A stretch of 64,000 bases of DNA from Botryllus schlosseri (GCA_051294905.1 CM119372.1:186001-250000); one strand, 5' to 3'. Counted from the first letter of the stretch, positions 32,216 to 59,761 are shown. Translations and numbers: made by a program. The notes: generated by a model from the sequence alone, not told the origin.

Positions 32216-34128
32216 GATTTTCAAACTTTGAGGTGTATTTCAAGGAGGTTCCATTGCCCTGGTTAGATTTTAATGTATATTTTCGGAATCAGTGCGACAG
32301 TAGCTTTCAAATAAGATCAACTTTATTGAATTTAAGCACGCGGGTCGTCCGCTATGGGATTAGCAATTATGTTGCGTTCAGATTGCTGAGCAGTAATTCC
32401 CTCCGGGCAAGCAAGCGTGACGACGGGTGTTGCGTATCCATCCGTAGGTTAGTTATCTATAGTTGCACAATGCACACCCAGATGAGCGACTAGCTTTCGA
32501 ATTATATATCTTGATGATGTCATCTAAAAATGTAGCAAGTTTCAAGATTGCCACTAACTGATTAGGGTAGGGTAGTAGTTTCCTTATCAAAGTCGAGTAT
32601 CTATAAATGTGATATGCCATCTAACCTCCGGTAAATATTGTTGCGATTGTTTCGCTGCGATTGACCAAATGGACTATACATTCAGTCGAGCGTGACCTAA
32701 AAATGGGAAAACGGGAGTTTCCGTTTCACAGTCACATTCGATAATAACATTATTTACATATAATTTTATATCAAATCAATGCACCACAAGATTGCAATAT
32801 AATGAAAAGATAGAAGGGCGCCGAAAAGTCTTGGGGTGGTCTTCAATCAGAAACTCACCTTGGCCTACAGCAGAGGTCTCAAACTCAAATGTGCTCGCGG
32901 GCCAATTTCCTAGTTTTTGATGACGCCGCGGACCGCAGCATCAATAATAGGGATAGGCTATTCAATGTATAATTTCCAAGTAGGCCTTATTTGTCGGGAC
33001 GTTGCAGACAAGCATTCCACAAACATCGTGGATATGTAATTTACTATTGTATTATTCACGCTTGACACGGAAAAAAATCACATGTATTATATTTGAATAA
33101 AATTGTTTTTGTGCCGGGCATAATTTTTTTTTAATTAATGAGTTATAGACATCATACGAGAGGATGCATCATGACATCGTAAAACTGTCGGATTATAATA
33201 TTGCAGCTATGCTAGTGGACCTTTGATGTGCCACAATTTTATGTAGAATATTTTAAAATATACTGAAGATTGATCTCATATCAGAGCATTTGAGCGGTTT
33301 AGCTTAGTACTGGTTTTGATATAGTCGTGAGGCTATTGTTACTGTCATTGCCAAAGTCAAACTGAATCAGCGTTAGATTTTGGCTTCGATTATTATTGGA
33401 ACATATCAATAGCAACTTAAATATAATTGCTTTTTAACCTTTTTAGCGATCTAACCCCTCGTGCTTCCAATGAGATGTCTCCTGTCTATTTTCAACACAA
33501 TTTCTGATGCCCATTCACATAAAATCGCGCGTAGCGCGACGACTATTTTCTAGTTGAATAGATTGGTCCAGAAAATATATTCCGCAGCATATAGGGCTAA
33601 TTCCACAATGCATCTCGTACACCCTGATGTGGTGCTTCGTACCCCGATGGGGTCTACGGACCCTGGTTAGGAACCCCTGGAATAGACATGTCCAATCGGC
33701 GAAGAATTCATTGGTGTTACAGCTGTAGAGCTTACAAATATCTTATTCGCCACCGATAATAACATGGATAAAGAGAAAAAACAACACCCAGCATGTAACC
33801 AACTATACGTCACGGGGGTCACAGAATGCAACTGGTTGCAATACTGGCCTGATTAGATAGCTATATACCCTACGCAACGAAAGTTACCACCTTTTGATAT
33901 CTTACTATTTCCCATGACAGTTTCATAGATTGTTGCGTCCGTAGGATTACCAAGTCACCGTTCCGAGTCGCAAGTCCTTCTCTGATTTGAACATTTGACC
34001 CGACTCAACTCGAGTCATTTTTATTTAATCACCTAGTCAATCCGAAATCGAGTAACTTTACGAGAAGGTCGCACCAAACCAAATCACAATTTTCAGTCAC
34101 GAAAGTAGTAGGTATGATCGGTCGCGAA

Positions 34129-34430
34129 CTAACATGGGCTCTTATGGGCCCGCTCGCATGTCGCCGCGAAACTCGTGTTGGCATATCGCGCTTTTAGACC
34201 CCCCCCCCTTCCGCTGGCACATCGCCATTGGTTCTTATGGGTGCGTTCGCATGTCGCACTTTCAGGTATAGTCATCTCTCGCACATCGCATGGAAAACTC
34301 GTGTTGGCACATCGCACTTTTAGGTATAGGCATCTCTCGCACATCGCATGGAAACTCGTGGTCGCATTCGCCATGTGTTCTTATGGATGCGTCGACATAT
34401 CGCCCTTTCGGGTATAGGCAACTGTCGCAC
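34129..34430. repeat. Subterminal degenerate repeats of the Polinton-like end (mirror at ~49595-49895)
   Basis: Recurring GCACATCGC, AAACTCGTGTTGGCA, TCTTATGGG and AGGTATAG modules. Confidence 0.75.
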
Positions 34431-35764
34431 GGTGTTGAATATGTATCAAGTAAATAGTCATGTGAATGAAACTTTGTTAATGTGTATATCGTAAATTATT
34501 AAATATGATATAGTTTAGTCGTGACAAATGACCGATCGTGTTCTAAGTCTTTCCTCGCTATTGATTCCTACGTAACCTGAATAGTACTTTCCGATCGGAT
34601 TATTCGCACCTTGTATACCGCTGTTTCGCACCTACAGAATAGTCTGCTGTTCACAGTCGTGACTTCACCGCGATAGCGCAATTTTCGAATCAGTCGCATG
34701 GTAATGTTTTGCTATTTAGTTTACCACAGAGCCGGTGTAGACGACGACGATTCGAATACCAACAATAGCCGCGTTCACATACTAACACTCCAAAAAGGTG
34801 TGAAATATTTCCTACGACCACTCACAAGATAGCACATCAGAATAGTCATCTCTCGTGGTTTGATGTTACAAAGATAGGGATCACGCACAAGTAATATTTT
34901 GGTAATAAGTTTGTCACATAACCGGCGCTTCCAATACCAACAATAGCCGCGTTCACATATTAACACTCCAAATAGGTGTGAAATAGTTTGCAAACCAGGC
35001 GATCGCTGACAAGATAATGTCTCAGACATACGCGACTTGATGTTACAGGCATATCGATCGCTCACGCGGTGAAATTTTCGTAAGCAGTTTGTCACAGAAC
35101 TCGTAAAGATTTAATAAGTAACGAATAACAGACCGCCAGTGTCGGTAACTTGAATAGCGACAAATTGTCACTTATTTCTACTCTAACCCTAATCCTTTGT
35201 GAAGTGTACGCTTATTCAAAAAGGTGCGAAATAATTCTAAAATCCTACGATCGCTCACAAGATAACACCTATAAGACATAACCATCTCTCGTGACTTGTG
35301 GTTACATACATTGCAATCGCTACAATGTAATATGTTGGTAGTTTGGTGCAGAACTGGATTTCACGAGTCTGATATAATATGAATATTACCTATTAAGTAA
35401 TAAGCACCGAATAACAGAACCGTCGCAGACGGTGACTTGAATATCCAAGATTTGATACTTTCCGCGATCGCTATATGTTTCACGTTCACTTTAGTTGTAT
35501 GACAAGAATCATGCGAATATTCAAGCAATGTATCAATTTGACAACTTGAAATGAAACTTACTACACAGCTCAAGTTGATTCGTATCTGAATGTGTTAATC
35601 CGGTACAATTCTAATTAATTTGAGAAATCTTTTTAACGTGATCTTTTGATTCGATCGTAACCTGAATATTACTGACGCCGACTTTCAGTCACATTGAATT
35701 ATTCACACATTCGCGCCGCTGTTTTCACGCCTATAGAATCAATACCAACTATAACTCTACAAGA

Positions 35765-37515
35765 ATCAAGAATCACAAGTATGTGCATTATACAGTTATT
35801 GTCGTTGTCAACTTCAAATCAAACTCTTAATACAAACACGCATCTTATCACTTGTCAACTCTATCATGAAAATCCTCGAACCTGTATTATTAAGAATGTT
35901 ATAGTACGGCGTCGGAATCCACTCGCGAGATGTACTAAAGGTAAATTGAGATCACCCAAAATGAAATATTTGGACTTTGACATAGTCTGAATTGCAATAG
36001 ATTGACAAACATGACTACCAACTTTCAACCCATACATATTTAGAGATTATGCGCATGTTGATTTGAAACAAGTAATGACCATACAACTCTATTCACGACT
36101 GAGTTTTCCGTTTGTCAAATAGAGTTTCAGTAAATAATTTCACTATACTATCATGATATTCAAATGTGTTACTACACACAATAGAATCAATCAATGAAAT
36201 AGCACCTGTTGTAAATATTTCTTACTTGACAACCACTTGTACATACCGCGATCGAGTTGCGACACGATGAGTTAAATCGGAATATTTCCATCTATTTGTC
36301 GAAACCTTGTACAAGCTATCTGGTTATTTTTTCGTTGCAATTGAGTTAACGGAAATAGTATTACGTCTCGACATCTTACCATCTTACCATACTCCAAAAA
36401 GCCAACAAGGAAAAACCTAGTCAAGTAAATCGTTTGTAACTCACCCAATCAACTCAAACAGTATCAGTATGAAAACAGTCAAGCATACACGAGTCCATAC
36501 AATCGCCACAATCTAAAATCCATAGCAAGTTCGGTTTTAGACATATACCGTCAACTCGTCTTTTTTGTTCAACTGTAAAAGTCGTTACTATTCTGCGAGA
36601 CAAAGAAATTACTATGCGGTATATTTTGTAAGATAAAAGTAATTACTTCTCGGCGCCGGCGACTTGAGATTAACATAATATGTTTGAGTATGCGAGATTT
36701 GAAAGTCTGCCCAACATGTTGAGAATTCATTTCTTACAATCGAACGCAGGTGTTATATTGAAAATTATCATGATGTAAACATAAGGATTGACACATTGAT
36801 TTGACGTATGTAATAGTTGATCACGACTTGATTATTAAATTATTCGCGTTAATTAGACCCGCGTTGTGTTGAAAGTTATGACAGCAACAAACTTTTCGGA
36901 AACATTGTTATTAACATATTGATTTGTAAAACTATACTTGTCTGAAATGTTCTTGATTTGGAAGATATTCCGTGTTGGTACAAATCACTCTGCGTATTGC
37001 GGATATCAGCAAATATTTTACAAATGTAATTGTTTCCAGTACCCAAGACTAAAGATGAAACAACAATTTAGTTTGCTGATAAACAACCGGTACAATACTT
37101 TATCATCATAATCCGCGGTGAGAATTGAAACACTTTCGCGCATTACACGATGTCAAGATATCACACTAGGTGAATTGGCATACCGCCGCTTGAATAATAC
37201 CTAATCCGTTCGCACCATTTCACATACTTTGATCATTACCAAAGTAAATTGTGATATGTTTGTTAGATGCATCCAATTCAGTTAGAAATGTCTGGTGCAC
37301 AACAATCGTAATATCAAAAAAGTACTTGCTACACTGTTATTTGCTAAACGTGTTTTGCATTGTTGTTCATTTGTAGTATTGATTGAAATTGTTCTTGAAC
37401 CCTCAAATAATAATTCCTGACATGAAACCAAGCCGCTCAAAGTCGTTACCATCACGAAGATACAATGTGTACGATGTTTGTCAAATGAGTCCTACCTGGC
37501 CAACAGAAAACAATT
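35765..37515 (-). pseudogene. Mirror copy of the probable decayed pPolB, left arm
   Basis: Reverse complement of 46510-48260 within the palindrome. Confidence 0.45.
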
Positions 37516-39044
37516 TTCACTCACTCGAAATGAAACCAATGTGATGGTCTCCAAACGATATTTTGTTTGTGTCAAATACTTTGCAATGAACACATTTGCG
37601 TGGTTGAGCTTTACATCATCAAGCTGTTATTTGTAAATCAAGATTTCGGTAAACTTGTAAATGTATCGTTTAACTAACCGACATTTAGTGATTGGGGAAC
37701 ATACCAGACGATACACACCCATCTCCGAAATACTGCATTGATCTTAATTTCCATCATCGTGATAATCGAAGTACATTTCTTTCGAATTCGTAACAACCGA
37801 CTATGACATGATAAATTTTTGACAAGTTATGCTTGGAAGATTGGTTGCATATCGCGAAAAAAATAATATACCACTCATATTGATACTGTTACTCCATTGA
37901 TCGATATTTTCAAACGAGTAAAATTTATTACTTGAGTGTCCCCGCTTAATGTAAATGAAAACTCAGCCGTCTTTTAACATCACAAAGACATTGATAAAAA
38001 GTAGGCAATCAAACACAACACTTTGTACGACACTAATTATTGTTCCACACATCTCATTTCATACTAAATGTATACGAAAGATATTCATGACACATGAAAA
38101 TATTCCCATGCTACAAACCTGTACAATGATCGGTGGTGCTTTCAAACTGTTTCGATATCACAAGAACTTTATTGTCTGAATGGGTGTTCATGTATCTTAA
38201 TAATCAAATAGTTCAACACAGAACTAGTACGAACAGAAACATCAGAGTTGTTTACACAAAAGTTTGTATGTGCACAGTATGCGAATACCATGTGTAAGTC
38301 CAGCACAATTGCGGTATCCATCCGAGTTTAGTTAACGCAAATTTATTACAACGAGCCACGTAAACTTTCGTGAAAGAAAAGCATAGTCACTTCCAGAGGG
38401 TTATGTCAACGCCATAGCAGTAAATCAGCTACTCCAACAAGAAAGTACATATGTTTTCTAGTCACGGTCCTTACATCTTTCACATAGATCAATCTACTTT
38501 GCTAACGAAAAGTGCTGAGTCATCACATGATTGCCCTCACAACAAAACAGCTAGAAGATATTATCATACAAAAATATTCCTAACCCTTTGCGCACCAGTG
38601 ACAAATCATACAACAAACATTTTTTGTGAGTCGAATTGTTGTTCAGTGTCAAGTCTACCTGCTGAAACGTACATTAAAACAACACAGTCACAATTCAATT
38701 AAAACCACGAATCTATTTTCATTTCGTCACATACAGAAAAATAAATTTTCTTTCCCCAACACATACTTGTAACCAATCGCTTTCATTAAACACACAACTC
38801 CATAAAAGTATGTACTTTCTACAACATAGACATTCCGACGTAGTCAAGAAATATTTTTATTAATCAAAATCATCGACTTCTGTTTACGGTGTTAGTGTGT
38901 GCATGTCATACACGTGGGGCCCGTATTAAAATGGACACGACACAACTGAATGTAAGGAGATAGAAGTCTATCGCATAGATTTACATGTGGTCTTCGCTAC
39001 GGTTTCAAAAAAAAACGAATCATCTCTTTTGCATTGATCTAGAC

Positions 39045-40301
39045 CAGGGGTTCTCAGCCCTTGATTGGCCGTGGCCCATTTTCCGGTTTGAAAATGTGCT
39101 GTGGCCCACCTCTTATTTTGGAGTCATAATCCTGTTCAATGCGTGGTAATCGACTGCACCGATATGCCTATTTCTCTAAAATATGCGCATTTTTCTATTA
39201 ATTTACTGATAATATTTAAATGTAGTGTAGACCTCTCGGCCTAGTCAATCGCGCGAAGCGCGACAAAAATTCTCAAGTCGAATAAATATCCTCCAACAAA
39301 CGACCAACGAAATAATCTTGGGCCCTTCGAGGTCCCGCAATCGGGGTATGGGTGTAGCAGTTACGGCCTTGCTAGATCATTGGCTGAAACCCCTGTGTAT
39401 ATTATAATCGTCCGCTGCTCCATTTGCATCGCGAAACACAGTGATCAAATCCATGCACCCACTGTGTGATTGGGATTTTAGTTCCACTATTGTGGGGAAT
39501 AACATAATCATTATGGGCCAGCTTCAAACAATTCATTTGTGAATGGGGTATACTACAGAGAAGTGGAGAAAGATTTTTTAATATGCATGCAATAACACAT
39601 CTTGTACCAAACCAACTGAAGTTGCGATGTCAGAATATTCAATCCAATGATACAATCAATTCATGTGGCTCTTATATTATGTACGATGATATCAGGGCGG
39701 ACATTTTAAAACAACTCCAAATATTAATGCGCTCCGCTAAATCCTCAATCCATTACGATCCGTTACGGTGGTGCAGTATACCTCCACCAGAAGTTGCTAA
39801 TAATTTGCAATTACGGCTATTTTTATCTTACAATATTACGACTTGCCTTAGTAGCATACAGTAAATCAATACATCAATTACACTTCATTCCGAGTTTATT
39901 GGACACCCCTTTCAACGGCATACGACATATGCCCCAGCCCCTGCCGGAATACTTGGTTACTTCAGCATACCAGCCTTTCAGTTATTATATACTCGAAATT
40001 ATTTTAGTGGCTGTTAGCCGTAGGTTGCCATAGCCAGTTGAAAAAGCCACCGTTTCTCCCTCCCGTTTTGGACTTGTACATGCTGACGCCATACGTACCA
40101 CTACGTGTCATCAGAGTCGGGTGAAAAGCTTTACGTATAGCCTACGTATAATTCAATAATATGAATAAATTTTTAGCGATTAACGTGACAAATATAACTA
40201 AACTTACGTTAACTCTAAAATTTTCTAAATAGCTTTGTGGCCCACCTCAAATGCTCCTGTGGCCCACCAGTGGGCCATGGCCCACCCTTTGAGAACCCCT
40301 G
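39045..40301. mobile_element. Non-autonomous hAT element in the left arm of the palindrome
   Basis: TIRs CAGGGGTTCTCA...TGAGAACCCCTG; 8-bp TSD ATCTAGAC. Confidence 0.9.
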
Positions 40302-40519
40302 ATCTAGACCGAGCAAGTTAGTTAATGACCATGATTGTGTTTGTCATATGCGAATGATAGGGTTACTGTCAAATCTACATACAACAACCTTCTGGCACTC
40401 ATAATAGCGATTTCATTCTCTCCCTTCGTAGTCATATACCCCCAACTCGGCTTTTTTGTTCATCGACAGCTGCGTTTAACAAGACCAACGACACTGAACC
40501 CACGACGTTTACCTATGTA

Positions 40520-41000
40520 AAATTACCACTTTCACTTGGCAGTCCGTCGTTTACCTGGATAAACATATCATTTTCACTTGGAAATCTATTTTTTCCCTGG
40601 GTAACAAACCTTTTTCACTTGGAAGCATATGTTTTCCCTGAGCAACAAACCATTTTCACTTGGAAATATATTTTTCCCTGAGCAACAAACCATTTTCACT
40701 TGGCGGGCCGTCGTTTACCTGAGTAAAAATATCATTTTCGTTTGGACATCTGACGTTTACCCAGTGTAACAATACATTCTCACTTGGCCATCTAACTTTT
40801 CCCAGAGTAATAATACATTTTCACTATGAAATCTGACATTTCCCTGAGTAACAATACCGTTTTTACTTGGAAACCTATTTTTTCCCTGGGTAACAAACCA
40901 TTTTCACTTGGAAATATATTTTTCCCTGAGTAATAATCCATTTTCGCTTGGAGATGTGGTGTTTACCTAAGTAAAAATACCGTTTTCGTTTTGAAATCTG
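40520..41000. repeat. ~40-bp minisatellite, ~12 degenerate units (mirror at ~43022-43502)
   Basis: Example unit CATTTTCACTTGGAAATATATTTTTCCCTGAGCAACAAAC (40651-40690), repeated head-to-tail. Confidence 0.85.
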
Positions 41001-43720
41001 ACAACCACACACATCAATTTGGTATTTGCTGTATTGGCGAAAGTTTGAAATAGATTACAACGAACAGTGACGAAAATATACACGACAACCGGTTTCAGAG
41101 TATACTCGCGTCGGTAGCAACACATCTATATCATCGGTTAACCACACGAAATAACAATATACTCTTGTATATCGAAATGTATGCTTTGGAAAATGACGAA
41201 TATTGTATGTCCTGATGTGTGTGTGTGTGTGTCCGGGTTCGTACTTTAGTTTTTGCACAGAGTCCATACGTCCGAATAAAACACCACCTCGACTTTGGTA
41301 CCTGGTTGGTACATGGATAACGGCGGTCGGAAATCGACGAATTTAGGTTCTCGTCGTGCTAATAGCTCCGGGCTACTTGTGATTTTCCTCACACATGTTT
41401 ACTATATTGTGTCACTCTTTATTGGTCAATACATATCCCACCGCTCAGTCTAAAATCGGAAACCCGAGAAAGTATTAACCGGATCCGGATATCAACTCTG
41501 AATCAAAAAAACCAATGAAACATGGTACACCCCGTGTTTCCATGAAAATAACAAGACATTACACATCAAGTATACTTCACGATTGTTCATAGATACCAAG
41601 TATTCGCGTAAACGAGGTGTACATACATCATGGATAACATCATGGCCGGCATTACAAGCATCATGGACGACAAATTCATGTTCTCAAGTCTCATACATGA
41701 ACCGACTCTGTACATTCAATGTGGGGGGTAGATGACTTGGAGACAGACAAACACACATATTTGACCGTAACATGATCTTAGTATGAACCGACATGTATTC
41801 AACTTGGAGAAAAATGAGTAGCACCGTATTTCACCGAGATTGCATCTCCTTTCGTGGTTCACATCTTGATCTACCCCTTCACAAGGTAGTTCGGATTCTC
41901 AGACGGATTTACATCGTGTATCAGGAACTCCGAGTATAGTAAAGGCGGGATATGTAGTTTAATTACTTACTCACTACCCTGTATGTTTGTGATGGTCATA
42001 CCCTGCAAACTTTTTTGCTGATAACGTAGTGTTTCACCTTACATCAGTTGGTTCAATGTATGTACCGGGTTGTGAAAGGTGTAGCAGAATATCATGTCCA
42101 TCCGTTTTACCACCCGCATCTTGTCTGTGTCTTAGCACTAAAGGGTGAGGATGGAGAAATCTGCGGGTGGTAAAACGGATGGACATGATATTCTGCTACA
42201 CCTTTCACTTTTCTCCAAGTTGAATACATGTCGGTTCATACTAAGATCATGTTACGGTCAAATATGTGTGTTTGTCTGTCTCCAAGTCATCTACTCCCCA
42301 CATTGAATGTACAGAGTCGGTTCATGTATGAGACTTGAGAACATGAATTTGTCGTCCATGATGCTTGTAATGCCGGCTATGATGTTATCCATGATGTATG
42401 TACACCTCGTTTACGCGAATACTTGGTATCTATGAACAATCGTGAAGTATACTTGATGTGTAATGTCTTGTTATTTTCATGGAAACACGGGGTGTACCAT
42501 GTTTCATTGGTTTTTTTGATTCAGAGTTGATATCCGGATCCGGTTAATACTTTCTCGGGTTTCCGATTTTAGACTGAGCGGTGGGATATGTATTGACCAA
42601 TAAAGAGTGACACAATATAGTAAACATGTGTGAGGAAAATCACAAGTAGCCCGGAGCTATTAGCACGACGAGAACCTAAATTCGTCGATTTCCGACCGCC
42701 GTTATCCATGTACCAACCAGGTACCAAAGTCGAGGTGGTGTTTTATTCGGACGTATGGACTCTGTGCAAAAACTAAAGTACGAACCCGGACACACACACA
42801 CACACATCAGGACATACAATATTCGTCATTTTCCAAAGCATACATTTCGATATACAAGAGTATATTGTTATTTCGTGTGGTTAACCGATGATATAGATGT
42901 GTTGCTACCGACGCGAGTATACTCTGAAACCGGTTGTCGTGTATATTTTCGTCACTGTTCGTTGTAATCTATTTCAAACTTTCGCCAATACAGCAAATAC
43001 CAAATTGATGTGTGTGGTTGTCAGATTTCAAAACGAAAACGGTATTTTTACTTAGGTAAACACCACATCTCCAAGCGAAAATGGATTATTACTCAGGGAA
43101 AAATATATTTCCAAGTGAAAATGGTTTGTTACCCAGGGAAAAAATAGGTTTCCAAGTAAAAACGGTATTGTTACTCAGGGAAATGTCAGATTTCATAGTG
43201 AAAATGTATTATTACTCTGGGAAAAGTTAGATGGCCAAGTGAGAATGTATTGTTACACTGGGTAAACGTCAGATGTCCAAACGAAAATGATATTTTTACT
43301 CAGGTAAACGACGGCCCGCCAAGTGAAAATGGTTTGTTGCTCAGGGAAAAATATATTTCCAAGTGAAAATGGTTTGTTGCTCAGGGAAAACATATGCTTC
43401 CAAGTGAAAAAGGTTTGTTACCCAGGGAAAAAATAGATTTCCAAGTGAAAATGATATGTTTATCCAGGTAAACGACGGACTGCCAAGTGAAAGTGGTAAT
43501 TTTACATAGGTAAACGTCGTGGGTTCAGTGTCGTTGGTCTTGTTAAACGCAGCTGTCGATGAACAAAAAAGCCGAGTTGGGGGTATATGACTACGAAGGG
43601 AGAGAATGAAATCGCTATTATGAGTGCCAGAAGGTTGTTGTATGTAGATTTGACAGTAACCCTATCATTCGCATATGACAAACACAATCATGGTCATTAA
43701 CTAACTTGCTCGGTCTAGAT

Positions 43721-44977
43721 CAGGGGTTCTCAAAGGGTGGGCCATGGCCCACTGGTGGGCCACAGGAGCATTTGAGGTGGGCCACAAAGCTATTTAGAAA
43801 ATTTTAGAGTTAACGTAAGTTTAGTTATATTTGTCACGTTAATCGCTAAAAATTTATTCATATTATTGAATTATACGTAGGCTATACGTAAAGCTTTTCA
43901 CCCGACTCTGATGACACGTAGTGGTACGTATGGCGTCAGCATGTACAAGTCCAAAACGGGAGGGAGAAACGGTGGCTTTTTCAACTGGCTATGGCAACCT
44001 ACGGCTAACAGCCACTAAAATAATTTCGAGTATATAATAACTGAAAGGCTGGTATGCTGAAGTAACCAAGTATTCCGGCAGGGGCTGGGGCATATGTCGT
44101 ATGCCGTTGAAAGGGGTGTCCAATAAACTCGGAATGAAGTGTAATTGATGTATTGATTTACTGTATGCTACTAAGGCAAGTCGTAATATTGTAAGATAAA
44201 AATAGCCGTAATTGCAAATTATTAGCAACTTCTGGTGGAGGTATACTGCACCACCGTAACGGATCGTAATGGATTGAGGATTTAGCGGAGCGCATTAATA
44301 TTTGGAGTTGTTTTAAAATGTCCGCCCTGATATCATCGTACATAATATAAGAGCCACATGAATTGATTGTATCATTGGATTGAATATTCTGACATCGCAA
44401 CTTCAGTTGGTTTGGTACAAGATGTGTTATTGCATGCATATTAAAAAATCTTTCTCCACTTCTCTGTAGTATACCCCATTCACAAATGAATTGTTTGAAG
44501 CTGGCCCATAATGATTATGTTATTCCCCACAATAGTGGAACTAAAATCCCAATCACACAGTGGGTGCATGGATTTGATCACTGTGTTTCGCGATGCAAAT
44601 GGAGCAGCGGACGATTATAATATACACAGGGGTTTCAGCCAATGATCTAGCAAGGCCGTAACTGCTACACCCATACCCCGATTGCGGGACCTCGAAGGGC
44701 CCAAGATTATTTCGTTGGTCGTTTGTTGGAGGATATTTATTCGACTTGAGAATTTTTGTCGCGCTTCGCGCGATTGACTAGGCCGAGAGGTCTACACTAC
44801 ATTTAAATATTATCAGTAAATTAATAGAAAAATGCGCATATTTTAGAGAAATAGGCATATCGGTGCAGTCGATTACCACGCATTGAACAGGATTATGACT
44901 CCAAAATAAGAGGTGGGCCACAGCACATTTTCAAACCGGAAAATGGGCCACGGCCAATCAAGGGCTGAGAACCCCTG
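43721..44977. mobile_element. Mirror copy of the same hAT insertion in the right arm
   Basis: Reverse complement of 39045-40301; TSD GTCTAGAT. Confidence 0.9.
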
Positions 44978-46509
44978 GTCTAGATCAATGCAAAAGAGAT
45001 GATTCGTTTTTTTTTTTTTGAAACCGTAGCGAAGACCACATGTAAATCTATGCGATAGACTTCTATCTCCTTACATTCAGTTGTGTCGTGTCCATTTTAA
45101 TACGGGCCCCACGTGTATGACATGCACACACTAACACCGTAAACAGAAGTCGATGATTTTGATTAATAAAAATATTTCTTGACTACGTCGGAATGTCTAT
45201 GTTGTAGAAAGTACATACTTTTATGGAGTTGTGTGTTTAATGAAAGCGATTGGTTACAAGTATGTGTTGGGGAAAGAAAATTTATTTTTCTGTATGTGAC
45301 GAAATGAAAATAGATTCGTGGTTTTAATTGAATTGTGACTGTGTTGTTTTAATGTACGTTTCAGCAGGTAGACTTGACACTGAACAACAATTCGACTCAC
45401 AAAAAATGTTTGTTGTATGATTTGTCACTGGTGCGCAAAGGGTTAGGAATATTTTTGTATGATAATATCTTCTAGCTGTTTTGTTGTGAGGGCAATCATG
45501 TGATGACTCAGCACTTTTCGTTAGCAAAGTAGATTGATCTATGTGAAAGATGTAAGGACCGTGACTAGAAAACATATGTACTTTCTTGTTGGAGTAGCTG
45601 ATTTACTGCTATGGCGTTGACATAACCCTCTGGAAGTGACTATGCTTTTCTTTCACGAAAGTTTACGTGGCTCGTTGTAATAAATTTGCGTTAACTAAAC
45701 TCGGATGGATACCGCAATTGTGCTGGACTTACACATGGTATTCGCATACTGTGCACATACAAACTTTTGTGTAAACAACTCTGATGTTTCTGTTCGTACT
45801 AGTTCTGTGTTGAACTATTTGATTATTAAGATACATGAACACCCATTCAGACAATAAAGTTCTTGTGATATCGAAACAGTTTGAAAGCACCACCGATCAT
45901 TGTACAGGTTTGTAGCATGGGAATATTTTCATGTGTCATGAATATCTTTCGTATACATTTAGTATGAAATGAGATGTGTGGAACAATAATTAGTGTCGTA
46001 CAAAGTGTTGTGTTTGATTGCCTACTTTTTATCAATGTCTTTGTGATGTTAAAAGACGGCTGAGTTTTCATTTACATTAAGCGGGGACACTCAAGTAATG
46101 AATTTTACTCGTTTGAAAATATCGATCAATGGAGTAACAGTATCAATATGAGTGGTATATTATTTTTTCGCGATATGCAACCAATCTTCCAAGCATAACT
46201 TGTCAAAAATTTATCATGTCATAGTCGGTTGTTACGAATTCGAAAGAAATGTACTTCGATTATCACGATGATGGAAATTAAGATCAATGCAGTATTTCGG
46301 AGATGGGTGTGTATCGTCTGGTATGTTCCCCAATCACTAAATGTCGGTTAGTTAAACGATACATTTACAAGTTTACCGAAATCTTGATTTACAAATAACA
46401 GCTTGATGATGTAAAGCTCAACCACGCAAATGTGTTCATTGCAAAGTATTTGACACAAACAAAATATCGTTTGGAGACCATCACATTGGTTTCATTTCGA
46501 GTGAGTGAA

Positions 46510-48260
46510 AATTGTTTTCTGTTGGCCAGGTAGGACTCATTTGACAAACATCGTACACATTGTATCTTCGTGATGGTAACGACTTTGAGCGGCTTGGTTT
46601 CATGTCAGGAATTATTATTTGAGGGTTCAAGAACAATTTCAATCAATACTACAAATGAACAACAATGCAAAACACGTTTAGCAAATAACAGTGTAGCAAG
46701 TACTTTTTTGATATTACGATTGTTGTGCACCAGACATTTCTAACTGAATTGGATGCATCTAACAAACATATCACAATTTACTTTGGTAATGATCAAAGTA
46801 TGTGAAATGGTGCGAACGGATTAGGTATTATTCAAGCGGCGGTATGCCAATTCACCTAGTGTGATATCTTGACATCGTGTAATGCGCGAAAGTGTTTCAA
46901 TTCTCACCGCGGATTATGATGATAAAGTATTGTACCGGTTGTTTATCAGCAAACTAAATTGTTGTTTCATCTTTAGTCTTGGGTACTGGAAACAATTACA
47001 TTTGTAAAATATTTGCTGATATCCGCAATACGCAGAGTGATTTGTACCAACACGGAATATCTTCCAAATCAAGAACATTTCAGACAAGTATAGTTTTACA
47101 AATCAATATGTTAATAACAATGTTTCCGAAAAGTTTGTTGCTGTCATAACTTTCAACACAACGCGGGTCTAATTAACGCGAATAATTTAATAATCAAGTC
47201 GTGATCAACTATTACATACGTCAAATCAATGTGTCAATCCTTATGTTTACATCATGATAATTTTCAATATAACACCTGCGTTCGATTGTAAGAAATGAAT
47301 TCTCAACATGTTGGGCAGACTTTCAAATCTCGCATACTCAAACATATTATGTTAATCTCAAGTCGCCGGCGCCGAGAAGTAATTACTTTTATCTTACAAA
47401 ATATACCGCATAGTAATTTCTTTGTCTCGCAGAATAGTAACGACTTTTACAGTTGAACAAAAAAGACGAGTTGACGGTATATGTCTAAAACCGAACTTGC
47501 TATGGATTTTAGATTGTGGCGATTGTATGGACTCGTGTATGCTTGACTGTTTTCATACTGATACTGTTTGAGTTGATTGGGTGAGTTACAAACGATTTAC
47601 TTGACTAGGTTTTTCCTTGTTGGCTTTTTGGAGTATGGTAAGATGGTAAGATGTCGAGACGTAATACTATTTCCGTTAACTCAATTGCAACGAAAAAATA
47701 ACCAGATAGCTTGTACAAGGTTTCGACAAATAGATGGAAATATTCCGATTTAACTCATCGTGTCGCAACTCGATCGCGGTATGTACAAGTGGTTGTCAAG
47801 TAAGAAATATTTACAACAGGTGCTATTTCATTGATTGATTCTATTGTGTGTAGTAACACATTTGAATATCATGATAGTATAGTGAAATTATTTACTGAAA
47901 CTCTATTTGACAAACGGAAAACTCAGTCGTGAATAGAGTTGTATGGTCATTACTTGTTTCAAATCAACATGCGCATAATCTCTAAATATGTATGGGTTGA
48001 AAGTTGGTAGTCATGTTTGTCAATCTATTGCAATTCAGACTATGTCAAAGTCCAAATATTTCATTTTGGGTGATCTCAATTTACCTTTAGTACATCTCGC
48101 GAGTGGATTCCGACGCCGTACTATAACATTCTTAATAATACAGGTTCGAGGATTTTCATGATAGAGTTGACAAGTGATAAGATGCGTGTTTGTATTAAGA
48201 GTTTGATTTGAAGTTGACAACGACAATAACTGTATAATGCACATACTTGTGATTCTTGAT
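46510..48260 (+). pseudogene. Probable heavily decayed protein-primed family B DNA polymerase (pPolB), right arm
   Basis: By-eye motif remnants in the expected order: NCFLLA (46510), FEGSRTISIN (46618) and ILTADYD (46900), these three in one frame; then DFYS (47442), WILDCGDCMDSCMLD (47503), LNMYG (47982), TCDS (~48245). Compare Polinton pPolB motifs CFLWA, FExxNxISIN, VIYADFE, FYS, W...GEYxDLY..D, NSxYG and TDTDS. Many stops, frameshifts and deletions. Confidence 0.45.
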
Positions 48261-51200
48261 TCTTGTAGAGTTATAGTTGGTATTGATTCTATAGGCGTGA
48301 AAACAGCGGCGCGAATGTGTGAATAATTCAATGTGACTGAAAGTCGGCGTCAGTAATATTCAGGTTACGATCGAATCAAAAGATCACGTTAAAAAGATTT
48401 CTCAAATTAATTAGAATTGTACCGGATTAACACATTCAGATACGAATCAACTTGAGCTGTGTAGTAAGTTTCATTTCAAGTTGTCAAATTGATACATTGC
48501 TTGAATATTCGCATGATTCTTGTCATACAACTAAAGTGAACGTGAAACATATAGCGATCGCGGAAAGTATCAAATCTTGGATATTCAAGTCACCGTCTGC
48601 GACGGTTCTGTTATTCGGTGCTTATTACTTAATAGGTAATATTCATATTATATCAGACTCGTGAAATCCAGTTCTGCACCAAACTACCAACATATTACAT
48701 TGTAGCGATTGCAATGTATGTAACCACAAGTCACGAGAGATGGTTATGTCTTATAGGTGTTATCTTGTGAGCGATCGTAGGATTTTAGAATTATTTCGCA
48801 CCTTTTTGAATAAGCGTACACTTCACAAAGGATTAGGGTTAGAGTAGAAATAAGTGACAATTTGTCGCTATTCAAGTTACCGACACTGGCGGTCTGTTAT
48901 TCGTTACTTATTAAATCTTTACGAGTTCTGTGACAAACTGCTTACGAAAATTTCACCGCGTGAGCGATCGATATGCCTGTAACATCAAGTCGCGTATGTC
49001 TGAGACATTATCTTGTCAGCGATCGCCTGGTTTGCAAACTATTTCACACCTATTTGGAGTGTTAATATGTGAACGCGGCTATTGTTGGTATTGGAAGCGC
49101 CGGTTATGTGACAAACTTATTACCAAAATATTACTTGTGCGTGATCCCTATCTTTGTAACATCAAACCACGAGAGATGACTATTCTGATGTGCTATCTTG
49201 TGAGTGGTCGTAGGAAATATTTCACACCTTTTTGGAGTGTTAGTATGTGAACGCGGCTATTGTTGGTATTCGAATCGTCGTCGTCTACACCGGCTCTGTG
49301 GTAAACTAAATAGCAAAACATTACCATGCGACTGATTCGAAAATTGCGCTATCGCGGTGAAGTCACGACTGTGAACAGCAGACTATTCTGTAGGTGCGAA
49401 ACAGCGGTATACAAGGTGCGAATAATCCGATCGGAAAGTACTATTCAGGTTACGTAGGAATCAATAGCGAGGAAAGACTTAGAACACGATCGGTCATTTG
49501 TCACGACTAAACTATATCATATATAATAATTTACGATATACACATTAACAAAGGTTCATTCACATGACTATTTACTTGATACATATTCAACACCGTGCGA
49601 CAGTTGCCTATACCCGAAAGGGCGATATGTCGACGCATCCATAAGAACACATGGCGAATGCGACCACGAGTTTCCATGCGATGTGCGAGAGATGCCTATA
49701 CCTAAAAGTGCGATGTGCCAACACGAGTTTTCCATGCGATGTGCGAGAGATGACTATACCTGAAAGTGCGACATGCGAACGCACCCATAAGAACCAATGG
49801 CGATGTGCCAGCGGAAGGGGGGGGTCTAAAAGCGCGATATGCCAACACGAGTTTCGCGGCGACATGCGAGCGGGCCCATAAGAGCCCATGTTAGTTCGCG
49901 ACCGATCATACCTACTACTCACGAATCATCAACGGGTCATGTTTTATCATCATGATCTAGAAATGTGTCGTAATAGTTGATCATTTACCGCAAGGTAGCT
50001 TTTAAAAGTGAAAGTGAAGTCTGTTGAGATTTCAGTAATTTTTATAATAGTTTGAGGGTGAACTTTCAGTTCTTATATCTAAAAAAGATATATGGCACTT
50101 CAATATATTGTTGAATACTTAAAATTCCAAAATGCCGCCGCGGGCCGCACAAAATGCTCTCGCGGGCCGCGTGTTTGAGACCTCTGGCCTACAGCATGTA
50201 AATAGGGTTACCATATTTTGGAATCGGGAAAGGAGGACAAATTTAAAGACATTTTAAAAAACCCAAAAAAGGAGGACAAATCCTCCTAAAGGAGGACGTA
50301 CCTTACACGTAAATAAGAGGCATGCACACTGAATAAAATAAAGGATAATATAAAAGTAAGCTACACAAAGGAATGCTGCATGCATGACTTGTGCGTTGGA
50401 ACCTTGTAATTGGCGAAACCGTGGATTAGGAGTAGCGTAAAATTAGATTTACTGGAGTAAGTACGGTAAATAAGGAAATACTTTTGAGTACTTCAAAAAA
50501 GTAGAAATACTCGAGTAGGTGTTGCCTACTTGGACTGTCTCCTCAAGTGATTTTGAGTTTAGACAACTTCTACTTCACAGTTTTTGTTTTTTAGCTAAAA
50601 CTAGGCCTAGCGTTGGGACCCCGGGAAATCCCGATCCCGGGATCCCGGGATTTGAAGCAATCCCGATCCCGGGATTTGTGAACAGCATCTACCAAGGCCA
50701 TATCTCTTAATTTGGTAATAAAGCAGTGTCCCAAACTCGGCTGATTGTCTAGAACAGTGGCCTCAAACACGCGGCCCGCAAGAACTGTTTTTGCGACCCA
50801 CGTCGGCGTTTTGACTTTTCAAGCATTCGACAATATTAAACTCGAAAATTTCAGATTTCGAATTTGAGAACTTGAAATTTCATTCTGAAACCACTCCAAA
50901 AACCTGAATCGCTGTCACACATCAAACGTCCACTAGCTTCTAAATTATAATGCGACAGCTTTTACGATGACACGATGCATTTGTCGTCTCGCATGGTTTC
51001 TAACTGTCTATATAACTCCTTATGTCGCCAAATTATGCCAAGCACAACAATATGTTTAAAAAAATATTGAAAAATATGACTTTTTCGTGGCAACCGTGAA
51101 TATTACAATAGTGTATTACATTTTCACAATGTGTGTGGAATGCCAATCTGCAAGGTCCGACAAAAAAGGCGTACTGGGAAACACATATTATACCAATATT

Positions 51201-54233: not shown

Positions 54234-54658
54234 GGTTTTTATTCGAATTCAATTAGATTATATTTGCATGCATAATTGCATATTGGAAATTTTCATCTCC
54301 TAAATCTTGGTAAAATTTGATTCATATCTTTCAAATAGGTATCAATTTGTTGTTACAGAAGCAGAAAACAAATGTCGTCGTTTGGCGTAGATTGTGCTAA
54401 CTGTGTTCTGTTGCTTAGAGCAGTGGTTCTCAACCGCTGGTCCGCGGACCGGTGCCGGTCCGCCAGGGCCAGGTGAATGACAATTATATACCTTAAATTC
54501 AAGATTCAATGCAAAAGGCTTGTCCATTGATCAAATAAATAAAACATCAAATTTTAAACTGATTCAGAACTTCTTGAGGTAACACTAGGGCTGGAAACAT
54601 GTTCGATTTGACTTAAAGCTCAAGACGTGTCATTTGACGACATGCAGATAAGACCGAG

Positions 54659-55222
54659 ATGCTCGTTTTAAATAATGCCATTCATAATTTCACTGTGAAC
54701 GTCAATCATAAACAAATCTCAATATGTGACTCAGCAAAATATCTCGGCGTCACCATTGATTCCAAATTGTCTTGGAAGCAGCATATTGAATGCACAATAT
54801 CAAAACTAGCTCGGTGTGTGGGAATAATGACCCGTCTCCAATCTTTGGTTTCCAGATCAGTGCTACGAACCATCTACTTCTCTCTTTTCCACTCTCATCT
54901 GCAATATGGAATCGTAGTATGGGGAAATGCATGCACAACATTTTTGTGCAGAATTCGAACCCTGCAAAACCGTGCGATACGGCTGATCTCATCTGTACCT
55001 TTACGTACCAATTTATCGCCTTACTACCGTAAGCATCAAATTTTGCGAGTTGATGAACTATATCGCTTCGAAGTATCAAAAGTTGTTCACAAATATTTTT
55101 CCAATAGTCTGCCTACTGTGTTTGATGACTTTTTCATACCTGCTAAACATGTCCATTCCCATTACACGAGATCCTCGTCTAAAGGAAACATCTACTTACC
55201 CCCACACAACTCTACTCGGTGA
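54659..55222 (+). pseudogene. LINE ORF2 fragment (RT thumb and C-terminus), CR1/L2 group
   Basis: AKYLGVTIDSKLSWKQHI...YFSLFHSHLQYGIVVWG...LQNRAIRLI...HSHYTRS. Confidence 0.9.
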
Positions 55223-56349: not shown

Positions 56350-59054
56350 AGTCAGTCAGTCAGTCAGTCAGGTTTAATAATATTTTCATCTTTTCAAAAC
56401 ATCACAAGACTGCGATACAATGAAAAGATAGGAGGGTGTCGAAACAACTTGGAGTAGCCATTAAGATCAGACACCCACCTTAGCCTAGGCGAAGTAAATA
56501 AGAGGCATGCACACTGAATGAAAAGTAATGCAGAGAAATATAAGACGCAAGCGACAAAATGGGGTGGCATGTGGCGGAGGGCGAGGTCGATGTTAGGTCG
56601 TGGTGCGGTAATCCTGAAGACTGGCTAGTGTTGATTTAGAAGAAATTGCTTGTATTTCGACTTGAATGCGGACATGCTCGACGACTGACGGATAGCCGGC
56701 GAGATGCTGTTCCACAATTGGGGTCCGGCATACTTGATAGAGCAATGCGTTTTCTTGTATTCAGTCCTGATCATATGGTATAGTTGTTCTTCGTTGACGC
56801 GCGTGTGCTGTACTTGTGCGCTTTTGTCTCCGAGGTGAAGTATTCCTTGAAATTTGAGGGACATTGACCGCAATGGAACTGATACATAAACTTGGCAATT
56901 TCTAGCTTCCTCATATCTTCTAAGTTTAGAACACCAAATCTTTTGAGAAGCGATTTATCAGTTGCACATCCAGGCCCCCGTGGGGCTTTGGCAATGATAC
57001 GGATGATCCGATGTTGAAGTTTTTGCAGTGGGTCAATTGTATTCTTGCAGGCAGCACCCCAACAAAGAATTCCGTATTGTAACTTTGATAGGAATAGAGA
57101 GTTGAAGAGTATCAACAGCACGCTGACTGGCAGAATGTAGCTAAGGCAGCGAAATAGACCACATACCTTCGATAGTCGTGGTTTGAGTGATTGTATGTGA
57201 CTCTTCCAGGACATGTCCGAATCCAGTAAAACACCAAGGTATTTGGCGTTTTTAGTGTTGGAAATTGGTTGGCCAGCGATGTCAACGGTTAGGTTATCGC
57301 AGGAGTTCACGACCAATAATTGGGATTTCGCAGCATTAACCCGAAGGCTATTATGGGACGTCCACTCATGCACTTTGGGCATTTGATCACTGGTGACGGC
57401 ATTCAAGCTTGCGGTAGTAGGTGCGTGAGATAGGAGGTGAGTATCGTCAGCGAAGAGTGTGGTATTCAATGATGAGGTTTCAAAGATATCATTGACATAT
57501 AAAGTAAAAAGGACAGGTCCAAGAACAGAGCCTTGCGGAACACCACAGGTAACAAGGTGGGGGGAGGACAAAGTGTTGGATATCGAAACCATTTGATATC
57601 TCCCAGTAAGGTAGCTTTTCATGAGCTCTAGTTGTGGACCCCGGAACCCGTAGCGCGCCAATTTTGAGAGAAGAATACTGTGATCGACGCAGTCAAATGC
57701 TTTTTTTAAATCAAGAAAAATGTTACATCCCACACTTCGTTTCTCCAAGATGTCATAGTACTGTTCAGCCACTGTTAGCAGGGCATGCGAGGTTTGATGT
57801 TTTCTGCGGAAGCCGAATTGTTGTGGAGAAATGATAGACATCTTGGCGAGGAACGAAGACAGGCGGGAGAGGAGCAATTTTTCGAAAACAATTCCAATAC
57901 ACGGTAGGACAGATATAGGTCGGTAGTTGGTGACATTAGTTCTATCTCCGGCTTTGTAAACCGGGACAACTCTGGCAGTTTTCAGATAATTCGGGTAGAC
58001 ACCATTTTCTATCATGAAATTGAAAAAATGGGCGATGAGATGACCGATGTGTAGGCTAATCAGTTTTAAAAACCAGGCTGGAATTAGATCATATCCAACT
58101 GCCTTGTTAGATTTAAGTTCATGTATGGCAAGTACCACTTCCGTGGAAGTTGCTGGCTCGAGCAAGATGGATTGGGATACTGATTTAACCTCAGGCCTGG
58201 CCGACGCAGGTTTAGAAATAGATGAGGCGATATTAGGCCCTACATTGCAAAAATATTCATTGAAGTAATTTGAGATTGCCGCAGGATCTGTCAGATTGTC
58301 CCCGGTAGTCGAGTTCGTGATTTGCGAGACAGGCATGGGGCGTTTTTTCTGGTGCAAGAGCAATTTAATTCTTGACCAGGTTTTTCGAGTGTCCTTCTTA
58401 TGTTTGTTGAAGAATTTCGCGTTAGCTTTCGCTTTTGCCTTGGAGATATGATGGGAGATGAGATTTCTGAAGCGTCGAAATCTTTCTCGTTCGTCTTGTG
58501 AGGTGTCCTTGGTATCGAGTCTGTGATGCCACCGGTTACGTTTTCGGATCAGCTGCACCAACTTTGAAGACATCCACGGTACCCTGTTCAATTTTCGACG
58601 ACTTCTTGAGATGCGTTGAAGAGGTGCAAATTTATCTATCAGCCCTTTGATGGTGAACATGAACTCCCCAAATTGATCGTCAAAGTTGCTTTTGGTGATG
58701 TGTGGGAGAGTAGACGGATGAAAGAGATTGAACGAGGCCTCGTTGAGGGCATCTTCGTCAACGGATTCAGGGTGTCTGCTGAAGTGATGAGATTCAGCAG
58801 GTATGCGTTGTTGAGATAATATGCAGCCGATATAATAGTGGTCTTTTATTTTAGCAGATATAACAAAAGGGAACATTTCTTTGTCAAGCACGTTCGAATA
58901 CAAGTGGTCAATTAAAGTGCTTGATTTCTCGGTGATTCTCGTGGGCTGCGTGATCATTTGGCAGAGACCAACGGCTTTAACGGTGTTGGCGTATGAGTTC
59001 GATCTCCTATTGAGAAGATCTATATTAATATCGCCCATAATGAAACAGATCTTT

Positions 59055-59096
<42 letters not shown>

Positions 59097-59761
59097 TTTA
59101 TTTTCATCGAACCAAAATACATAACAAACGGCAGTGATGGTGGTACAGAAAATATGCGTGCACAGTATTCGGTATTAGATAGGAATGATCGATAAGACCG
59201 TGAAGGTCATCTAGTCTGATCACACCAGCATCTTGCACTGTTGATTTTATCCATGCTGTTTTCCATTGCCTCGGTGAATTCAGCGATTTTGTTCTTACTA
59301 TTAGGATGGTGGTATAATACTGCAACGAGAAATGATTTGTGTTTGCCGATTGGGTGGTCGATTTCTAGCCACAATTCTTCGCATTGCTCAATATTCAGGT
59401 TGTATTCCGAACAGATTTTGTAAGATATGTCATCGTCTACGTATATACCAACTCCGCCGTAAGTTTCGGGCGCTGGGATATATTCGAAGTTATAGCCCGA
59501 TATATTTACGTTCTCTGAGGGTTAATTCGGAAAATTTACTTCCGAGATTGCTACAAAGGAGGGAGTACTTTCCAAGTCACAGACCAATTTATGAAGATCG
59601 GCAAAATGTGCGCCTTTATTCCATTCAAGCCCTCCCAAATTGGTATGTATGAAGGAGATTTGTTTATCAATAGGGAGTTTTGACAGGAATGATGATGTCT
59701 CTTCAATCGATATGGTGGTGCATTGTTCGACGAGTGGAAAAGTACAGATATTGTTATCCAT
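56350..59761 (-). mobile_element. Near-full-length non-LTR retrotransposon (APE endonuclease plus RT; CR1/L2 group), inactivated
   Basis: EN motifs HTNLGGL, AISEV, GGVGIYV, MGDINID, TLIDHLY; RT motifs YRPISVL, QFGFR, FLDLKKAFD, GVPQGSVLGP, FADDT, KYLG. Lesions: premature TAA at 59522-59524, an insertion at 59059-59230, a frameshift near 56770. Stop at 56625, then 3' UTR and (CTGA)n tail at 56350-56370. Confidence 0.92.
59059..59230 (-). mobile_element. Short retroposed insertion (CR1-like 3' end with (CT)n tail) inside the LINE endonuclease
   Basis: 5-bp TSD TCTTG; removing it restores KINSARKICFIMGD; second copy at ~62549-62707 (+); GACTAGATGACC...GGTC motif. Confidence 0.85.

Follow-up and report, generated by a model that had tools for sequence, protein, structure and literature searches.

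The 64,000-nt window analysed here (Botryllus schlosseri, GCA_051294905.1 CM119372.1:186001-250000; G000:C2:186001-250000 in the 495.5-Mb eukaryotic assembly of 219 contigs that was searched) carries, at positions 34104-49919, a mobile element of 15,816 bp that is palindromic over its whole length. The element is a member of a dispersed family of non-coding, whole-length palindromes with Maverick-type ends; in the reading that we hold with moderate confidence, these would be non-autonomous and would obtain both arms of each new copy from one template through the cycle of the resident Mavericks (Polintons). The link to a helper and the mechanism homogenizing the arms are what we infer here, while the structure in the window was confirmed as genuine, far beyond chance and no assembly artefact.

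Structure and insertion site of the palindromic element

The outermost letters of the element are AGTAGTAGGTATGATCGG at its start and CCGATCATACCTACTACT at its finish. The ends AGTAGT...ACTACT and the perfect 6-bp target site duplication (TSD) CACGAA, both of which had been pointed out in the first-pass annotation of the window, were read directly, the flank context being ...TCAGT CACGAA on the left and CACGAA TCATC on the right. The two arms are reverse complements of each other, aligned by blastn in a single alignment of 7,718 nt with 6 mismatches and 3 gaps; this agrees with the few differences described earlier, and the arm length, then given as ~7.7-8 kb, is 7.71 kb. Four inverted-repeat blocks, each 100% complementary, tile 34104-41817 against 42205-49919, and the breaks between them are homopolymer length differences only. 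The arm-to-arm substitutions are found at positions 34471, 34502, 37926, 41644, 41727 and 41814, and the homopolymer indels at 34199 (C run), 37857 (A) and 39007 (A run). The following features were distinguished:

34098-34103, unstranded: left copy of the TSD, CACGAA, read directly; a single 6-mer in paralogous empty sites
34104-34120, + strand: terminal signature, consisting of (AGT)2, a variable hexamer (AGGTAT in the window copy) and invariant GATCG; mirrored at 49903-49919
34104-34440, + strand: subterminal region with a conserved block (TCTTATGGG...AAACTCGTG...) and ~32-nt repeats at 34247-34348; mirrored at 49583-49919
34104-41817, + strand: left arm, non-coding, 7,714 nt
39045-40301, + strand: nested element of 1,257 bp, with terminal inverted repeats (TIRs) CAGGGGTTCTCA... 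(12 nt) and an 8-bp TSD, ATCTAGAC, at 39037-39044 and 40302-40309
40504-41002, + strand: array of a 41-nt tandem repeat, ~12 copies, in the inner arm; mirrored at 43020-43518
41818-42204, + strand: asymmetric apex loop of 387 nt, whose first ~254 nt extend the homology of the left arm only
42072-42208, + strand: small perfect hairpin with 47-nt stems (42072-42118 and 42162-42208; 47/47 complementary) and a 43-nt spacer, abutting and overlapping the start of the right arm
42205-49919, - strand: right arm, which mirrors the left arm as its reverse complement apart from ~6 substitutions and 3 homopolymer indels
43721-44977, - strand: second, mirrored copy of the nested element, located in the right arm and flanked by an identical TSD (43713-43720 and 44978-44985)
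49920-49925, unstranded: right copy of the TSD, CACGAA, read directly

Both AGTAGT and GATCG are unchanged in 16 of 16 aligned copies of the family, and the subterminal region (34104-34440) is likely to serve as the cis site for the mobilizing machinery. The lack of an intact open reading frame, noted previously, was upheld: no stop-free frame in 34104-42100 exceeds 118 amino acids (aa), the curated Pfam cut-offs were reached by none of the 37 stop-free frames of at least 55 aa from 34104-42204, and nothing in Rfam matched 33800-50200.

Both flanks (33704-34103 and 49920-50319) are part of another dispersed repeat. In two paralogues of this repeat, the left and right flanks are joined over a single 6-mer (CACAAA in locus L011 and CACGAA in locus L029), and the 6-bp duplication was therefore produced by the insertion. 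Copies of the flanking repeat (L011:1999-2661; L029:3013-3155) also lie within ~1 kb of two other family members. In contigs of run X1, position 34103 is joined directly to the right flank (29 of 30 letters identical with window 49926-49955), and this junction is an empty site, either allelic or belonging to a near-identical paralogue. The element of the window is a recent insertion.

An assembly or long-read foldback artefact, with the second arm absent from the DNA of the organism, has in our estimate a negligible probability. Foldback chimeras are known among long-read errors (PMC12870357), but a TSD encloses the structure as a whole, each of 16 elements at separate sites has its own TSD, the asymmetric loop is conserved among copies, and the joint between the arm and the loop (41817/41818) is bridged by an independent short-read contig. 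The latter, 398 nt long and originating from X3 (a run with another organism label), shows 1 difference in 361 nt. The Logan contigs are short and repeat-collapsed, cannot span both arms as one molecule, and have a depth that does not equal copy number. Between 25 and 46% of the words sampled from the apex stretch are present in runs X3, X4, X7 and X10, which are labelled as four other organisms, and these words, together with the X3 contig, indicate that the family, or the subfamily of the window element, is common to close relatives. In the single-cell RNA reads (X23; ~22 million, i.e., ~3% of the run), 197 matches were obtained, of which 171 are only 95-99% identical; they are therefore mostly paralogue-derived, and no expression is claimed.

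Distribution, palindromy and arm evolution of the family

The 17-nt signature AGTAGT-N6-GATCG has 2,603 matches in the genome (1304+1299), compared with 195 (77+118) for the control, and the first 26 nt of the element, with up to 3 mismatches, have 78+86 matches, compared with 0+0 for the reversed control. Matches to the terminal 337 nt come in +/- pairs, spaced 12-24 kb apart (among the best 40 of 1,814 candidates). The number of matches suggests a family of the order of a thousand elements, which, at ~14 kb each, would make up ~3% of the genome (an estimate, not a measured value). The lengths of 42 end pairs have a median of 13.7 kb and an interquartile range of 13.3-14.7 kb, with 33 of them falling within 12-16 kb, as do 21 of the 29 pairs in the first 19.6 Mb of C1. 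Further copies with different 6-bp TSDs, which the first-pass annotation had suggested looking for, are present: perfect 6-bp duplications of differing sequence flank all 16 independent elements with both ends located (the ends of the C4 pair were not located, and copies C2c and C2d represent one insertion in a duplicated segment). In eight of these 16 elements the TSD has CG at positions 3-4 (e.g., CACGAA, CACGAT, CACGTT, CCCGAA and, twice, TGCGTC), which may reflect a weak target preference.

All 11 long copies, including that of the window, are palindromic over their whole length, with arm identity of 97.5-99.985% and, in simple copies, loops of 259-2,838 nt. A typical member of the family measures 13-14 kb and has arms of 6-7.7 kb and an asymmetric loop. 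At 20 further loci, taken from the best 40 of 1,968 candidates scored, a mid-arm marker occurs as +/- pairs 1.4-5.4 kb apart in 12 cases and singly in eight (two of them on small contigs). Along the arms the copies are collinear and 65-97% identical by segment. Three short copies (6.6-7.9 kb) contain one arm's worth of sequence and have inverted ends of 173, 878 and ~1,300-1,500 nt; in one of them (L052) there is a gap from arm position ~880 to the apex, which matches what would remain of a palindrome after a deletion taking in its centre.

The apex (arm-end, loop and small hairpin) is common to five relatives (91-97% identity), the small-hairpin piece recurs beside the apex in relatives, and the loop extension of copies C9 and C12b has ~70% identity to that of the window element and is again found on one arm. 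Since the apex is common to relatives that include C9 and C12b (~30% diverged), the palindrome with its apex is an old and inherited architecture of the family, passed on by transposition. A snap-back as proposed in the first-pass annotation may well have founded the family, in which case it belongs at the root and not at the window locus. The annotation had attributed this hairpin to the copying back of one Polinton end, which, taken literally as a unique local event, would agree with the snap-back-genome architecture and with the Polinton-like ends and TSD. The finding by which the annotation would have had its proposal fall, all other copies being non-palindromic, did not arise, and this speaks in its favour. 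As a one-off event at this locus, however, we consider such an origin very improbable: the ten other long copies are without exception palindromes with the same kind of apex, there are ~2,600 signature matches and about a thousand elements with an inherited apex, the subfamilies are up to ~28% apart, and the arms contain no Polinton remnant by comparison with the 10 kb of a resident Polinton that were read.

The inner arm end and loop of the window element (41400-42085) share 88% identity with another abundant repeat, 'X' (e.g., G000:C8:8073477-8081574, C15:1296542-1304787 and C10:34-7807). Copies of X form (-)/(+) pairs that face outward at a distance of 5-6 kb, and a short, incomplete foldback lies on the outer side of each. 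This repeat is collinear with the apex of the family and may be a candidate precursor of it.

Comparison of the end sequences showed that the arms of each copy are mutual closest relatives and evolve in concert. Over the first 450 nt, divergence between the left and right ends within a copy is 0-0.67% (13 copies), compared with 3.6-27.6% (median 18.5%; 77 pairs) between copies. In a maximum-likelihood tree, each of the 13 copies has its two ends as sisters or as identical sequences, and a private end variant is carried by both ends of the pair. The nested element, which we term hAT-like by its TSD length and short TIR only, is identical in the two arms over the 1,254 nt compared. The corresponding empty site is visible in L049 and L039, and the insertion is lacking in at least 12 palindromic relatives whose arm side is 98-100% identical; in a junction search, the junction of the nested element was spanned only by the two arms of the window element and by one 89% match on C11. 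A transposon insertion strikes one arm, and the nested element is present in both; therefore, the other arm was remade from, or corrected to, the arm that was struck.

Not all copies are equally symmetrical. Copies whose arms are less alike tend to have one-sided indels of 0.4-2.7 kb (C13, C14, C1, C12b and C2b; C11 has an arm identity of 98.05%); the cleanest copies (C6, C12a, C9 and that of the window) have 99.6-99.99% arm identity and no one-sided indels. This trend, a rough one drawn from 11 copies, is more in keeping with arms that were identical at integration and then decayed than with efficient conversion in place.

Several copies have a more complex structure. A 21.9-kb copy (G000:C6:19119724-19141597; L039-L041) is composed of 'one and a half' palindromes within a single TSD (CCCGAA), in the order full arm, loop, 1.3 kb of return arm, 100-nt joint, 5 kb of arm, loop and full return arm, with all parts at least 99.9% identical. 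Another, of 23.7 kb (G000:C1:17634448-17658137; L042-L044), contains a second internal palindrome. Template switching, or recombination between units, appears to have produced both. In the centre of a 20.5-kb copy (G000:C2:33045315-33065808) lies a C2H2 zinc-finger fragment (L055:774-1076; PF00096, 62 bits), which is either a captured host sequence or a nested insertion. At G000:C1:16768420-16810257 three signature pairs are nested (41.8, 28.7 and 14.6 kb), and members of the family therefore evidently insert into one another. The locus G000:C3:30391995-30431441, which has one + end followed by three - ends, the last two intervals being exactly 12,914 nt each, is a tandem duplication involving an element end. 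Two copies 83 kb apart (G000:C2:20634793-20650377 and C2:20718146-20733730), whose ends are identical and whose TSD is GCAGGC in both, represent a segmental duplication containing one element, not two insertions. Elsewhere in the window, an 811-aa frame (56771-59206, - strand) and a 194-aa frame (54638-55222, + strand) resemble, by eye, endonuclease/reverse transcriptase sequence of non-long terminal repeat (non-LTR) retrotransposons.

Maverick-type ends, resident Polintons and proposed mobilization in trans

In vertebrate Mavericks (PMC8097293), the commonest end motif is 5'-(AGT)2//(ACT)2-3', the 6-bp TSDs are perfect, lengths of intact elements range from 12.7 to 24.6 kb, and the end repeats are interpreted as a 'jumping-back' device of protein-primed replication. 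The same combination was found here, namely a 6-bp TSD, (AGT)2//(ACT)2 ends and a length of 12-25 kb with TIRs. The other superfamilies with 6-bp TSDs (IS3EU/GingerRoot, IS481EU and Ginger2) have TA..TA, TG..CA or TGTNR termini (PMC10045372; PMC2836005), and the AGTAGT...ACTACT ends rule out membership in any of them. An autonomous Maverick is ruled out as well, as the element has no pPolB, integrase, ATPase, protease or capsid gene and no frame longer than 118 aa. Having no genes, it must therefore be moved in trans. The first-pass annotation had likewise seen in it a Maverick/Polinton-type insertion moved in trans, which the ends, TSD, length and absence of genes fit.

Many apparently intact Polintons are resident in the genome. 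A search with Pox_A32 (PF04665) led, through a multi-copy 274-aa frame, to a 10-kb Polinton locus (L057; G000:C2:2215500-2225499) with eight frames on one strand. These include (i) a 1314-aa pPolB-like frame, which has no Pfam match and an Atlas feature score of 0.97 to clusters that are 95-100% PF03175, (ii) the 274-aa A32-type ATPase (PF04665, 1.4e-9), and (iii) a 350-aa integrase (rve, 2e-13, and chromodomain, 3.4e-10). At least 35 long pPolB frames are present in the genome (35 of 360 candidates were scored, and all 35 loci encode 1288-1314 aa), and they form three identity classes of 91-100% (12 loci), 65-67% (10 loci) and 60-61% (13 loci). The frames represent at least three Polinton lineages, exemplified by A at G000:C2:2220780-2224721, B at C1:7944855-7948748 and C at C1:23801819-23805703. 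Eleven copies of lineage A are 98-100% identical at the protein level and look recent. A genome search with PF03175 gave 0 matches, which is uninformative, since Pfam also misses the 1314-aa frame, and comparison of that frame with PDB sequences gave only zinc-finger noise. A genome search with rve (150 of 1,389 candidates scored) yielded mostly LTR-retrotransposon integrases, none of them inside family pairs on C1. A 177-nt piece located just upstream of pPolB (L057:9821-9997) occurs once per Polinton copy and also as inverted pairs 14-16 kb apart (C2:1138841/1154545, C10:1308865/1322731, C6:21315551/21330662 and C1:39554730/39570855); the latter may belong to another long-armed family that acquired the piece.

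With such a helper available, a new copy of the palindrome would be produced as follows. Copying would start at the (AGT)2 ends, probably by the protein-primed polymerase of the helper, and the displaced strand, being self-complementary, would fold into a full-length hairpin rather than a panhandle, in which differences between the arms would be mismatches open to repair. Alternatively, the polymerase could turn back at the apex, where the perfect 47-nt hairpin abuts the short arm, so that the new copy would derive from one arm only. Either route would give arms identical at birth. The product would then be integrated in trans by the integrase of a resident Maverick, after which the arms would diverge and acquire one-sided indels. 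The narrow length distribution would reflect a constraint imposed by the helper, and packaging is a candidate with which it is compatible.

Several results weigh against this scheme. The 10 kb of the lineage-A Polinton (L057) resemble neither the window nor any family locus at the DNA or protein level, and tblastn with eight resident-Polinton proteins gave nothing below E=0.29. AGTAGT-N6-GATCG does not occur at the expected ends of the Polintons on C1 (an A-like one at 6.09 Mb and one of lineage B at 7.94 Mb), and no Polinton sharing the ends of the family was found by signature positions, the Polinton termini themselves being unread and a bare (AGT)2 in them unverified. Ends of the AGTAGTGT variant form 18-21 kb pairs on C1 and were considered as candidate autonomous elements; 0 of 35 pPolB loci lie inside the pairs listed (100 of 171 matches). 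No coding capacity or transposase candidate was recognized in the 17 family copies read (L040 has no frame of at least 120 aa, and L043 and L051-L053 have only frames of 100-182 aa without Pfam matches). No source copy bearing the nested element was detected in the assembly, and the correlation of asymmetry with divergence is a rough one from 11 copies. Finally, the arms could instead be kept identical by in situ gene conversion of the kind operating in large genomic palindromes. The helper may share only the extreme tip with the family, may belong to an unscored lineage, or may be no Maverick at all.

The last of these possibilities corresponds to a giant foldback-type, cut-and-paste DNA transposon of a non-Maverick superfamily with 6-bp TSDs, whose arms would be kept alike by in-place conversion or hairpin repair rather than through a replication cycle. 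Long gene-less inverted arms are a hallmark of foldback elements, and arm-to-arm conversion is known for large genomic palindromes; moreover, no Polinton with the 17-nt end signature was identified and the arms showed no Polinton-derived sequence in comparison with the 10 kb of lineage A. Nevertheless, we regard this origin as unlikely. The combination of (AGT)2//(ACT)2 ends, a perfect 6-bp TSD and a length of 12-24 kb has been published as the Maverick signature (PMC8097293), the termini of the other superfamilies with 6-bp TSDs are different, and the 17 copies read contain no transposase candidate. In addition, one-sided insertions of 0.4-2.7 kb and arm divergence of 0.4-1.4% persist in several copies, and conversion in place is therefore inefficient at best.

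Relation to known systems and implications

Large genomic palindromes, e.g., those of sex chromosomes, undergo arm-to-arm conversion. They resemble the window element in having arms more than 99.9% identical and a short spacer, but they are single immobile loci without a TSD or an end motif, whereas the window family is dispersed. Among mobile elements, Foldback has a TSD of 9 bp and arms built mainly of tandem repeats, and Galileo has a TSD of 7 bp. The Drosophila FB type is ruled out for the window family by the 6-bp TSD and by the small share of tandem repeats in the arms (only ~0.5 kb and 0.1 kb per 7.7-kb arm). Foldback and Galileo have very long inverted arms, copies that are mostly non-coding, tandem repeats in their interior and structural dynamism (PMC3573991; PMC4168063), all of which are reminiscent of the present family. 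The ends of these elements, however, are not (AGT)2, Galileo is placed in the P superfamily, and the TSD of the window family is 6 bp long.

Adenovirus defective DNA is a parallel to snap-back defective genomes. The latter (the adeno-associated virus snapback genomes and the defective viral genomes of RNA viruses) share with the family near-complete self-complementarity, retention of the replication and packaging ends only, a lack of coding capacity and dependence on a helper (PMC8235507; PMC13506859). Near full-length self-complementarity without coding capacity was indeed found here. The family differs in being chromosomally integrated with TSDs, in forming a diversified lineage that inherits its apex, and in containing no parental-virus sequence beyond the end motif, and it is known here from integrated DNA alone. 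Sequence derived from one end of a parental Polinton was not recognized in the comparison with lineage A, there being no similarity to its 10 kb, including the pPolB side.

The likeness to Mavericks/Polintons consists in the (AGT)2...(ACT)2 ends, the 6-bp TSD, TIRs and a length of 12-25 kb (PMC8097293; 10.1101/2023.08.22.554363). The differences are that the family has no Polinton genes or remnants, that its copy number is about a thousand, and that its 7.7-kb arms span the whole element, while published Maverick TIRs measure 46-1,447 bp; polintons with gene-bearing TIRs of ~2 kb have also been reported (10.1101/2025.02.07.637071). Virophages and polinton-like viruses are relatives of Polintons, and in 10.64898/2026.07.28.741278 it is proposed that their end palindromes fold and prime replication; these are, however, palindromes of ~52 nt at the tips of gene-bearing genomes, unlike a gene-less palindrome that takes up the whole element. 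In the open-access literature searched (Repbase and subscription journals lay outside the search), no description of whole-length palindromic, gene-less elements with Maverick ends was found. The window family is best described as a palindromic, previously undescribed form of a non-autonomous Maverick-type element, whose helper would be a resident Maverick.

To our knowledge, the replication of Mavericks/Polintons has never been observed, and the model of a protein-primed panhandle is inferred from gene content and end repeats. If both arms are renewed from one template, the family would be a natural experiment on the Maverick cycle, one that would indicate the sequences needed in cis (the first ~100-400 nt), a stage in which a single strand folds back on itself and, possibly, a limit on size. 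Should the link to Mavericks fail, the family would represent a large group of foldback transposons with other machinery. In either case, near-perfect palindromes of 13-16 kb, which are usually thought unstable, persist and spread in an animal-type genome, of which they may make up an estimated ~3%, with consequences for assembly, structural variation and possibly the production of double-stranded RNA or small RNAs. It is also conceivable, although we consider it rather doubtful, that these elements are germline 'hairpin satellites' of Mavericks, i.e., self-templating, helper-replicated molecules of ~13-14 kb that are packaged in helper capsids and integrated by the helper integrase, forming a self-sustaining lineage (~3% of the genome) that may compete with or dampen its helper. 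If so, they would be gene-less genomes in which nothing but the ends for protein priming and integration is retained, the renewal of both arms from one in each cycle would be accounted for, and they would be the DNA-transposon counterpart of snap-back defective interfering genomes.

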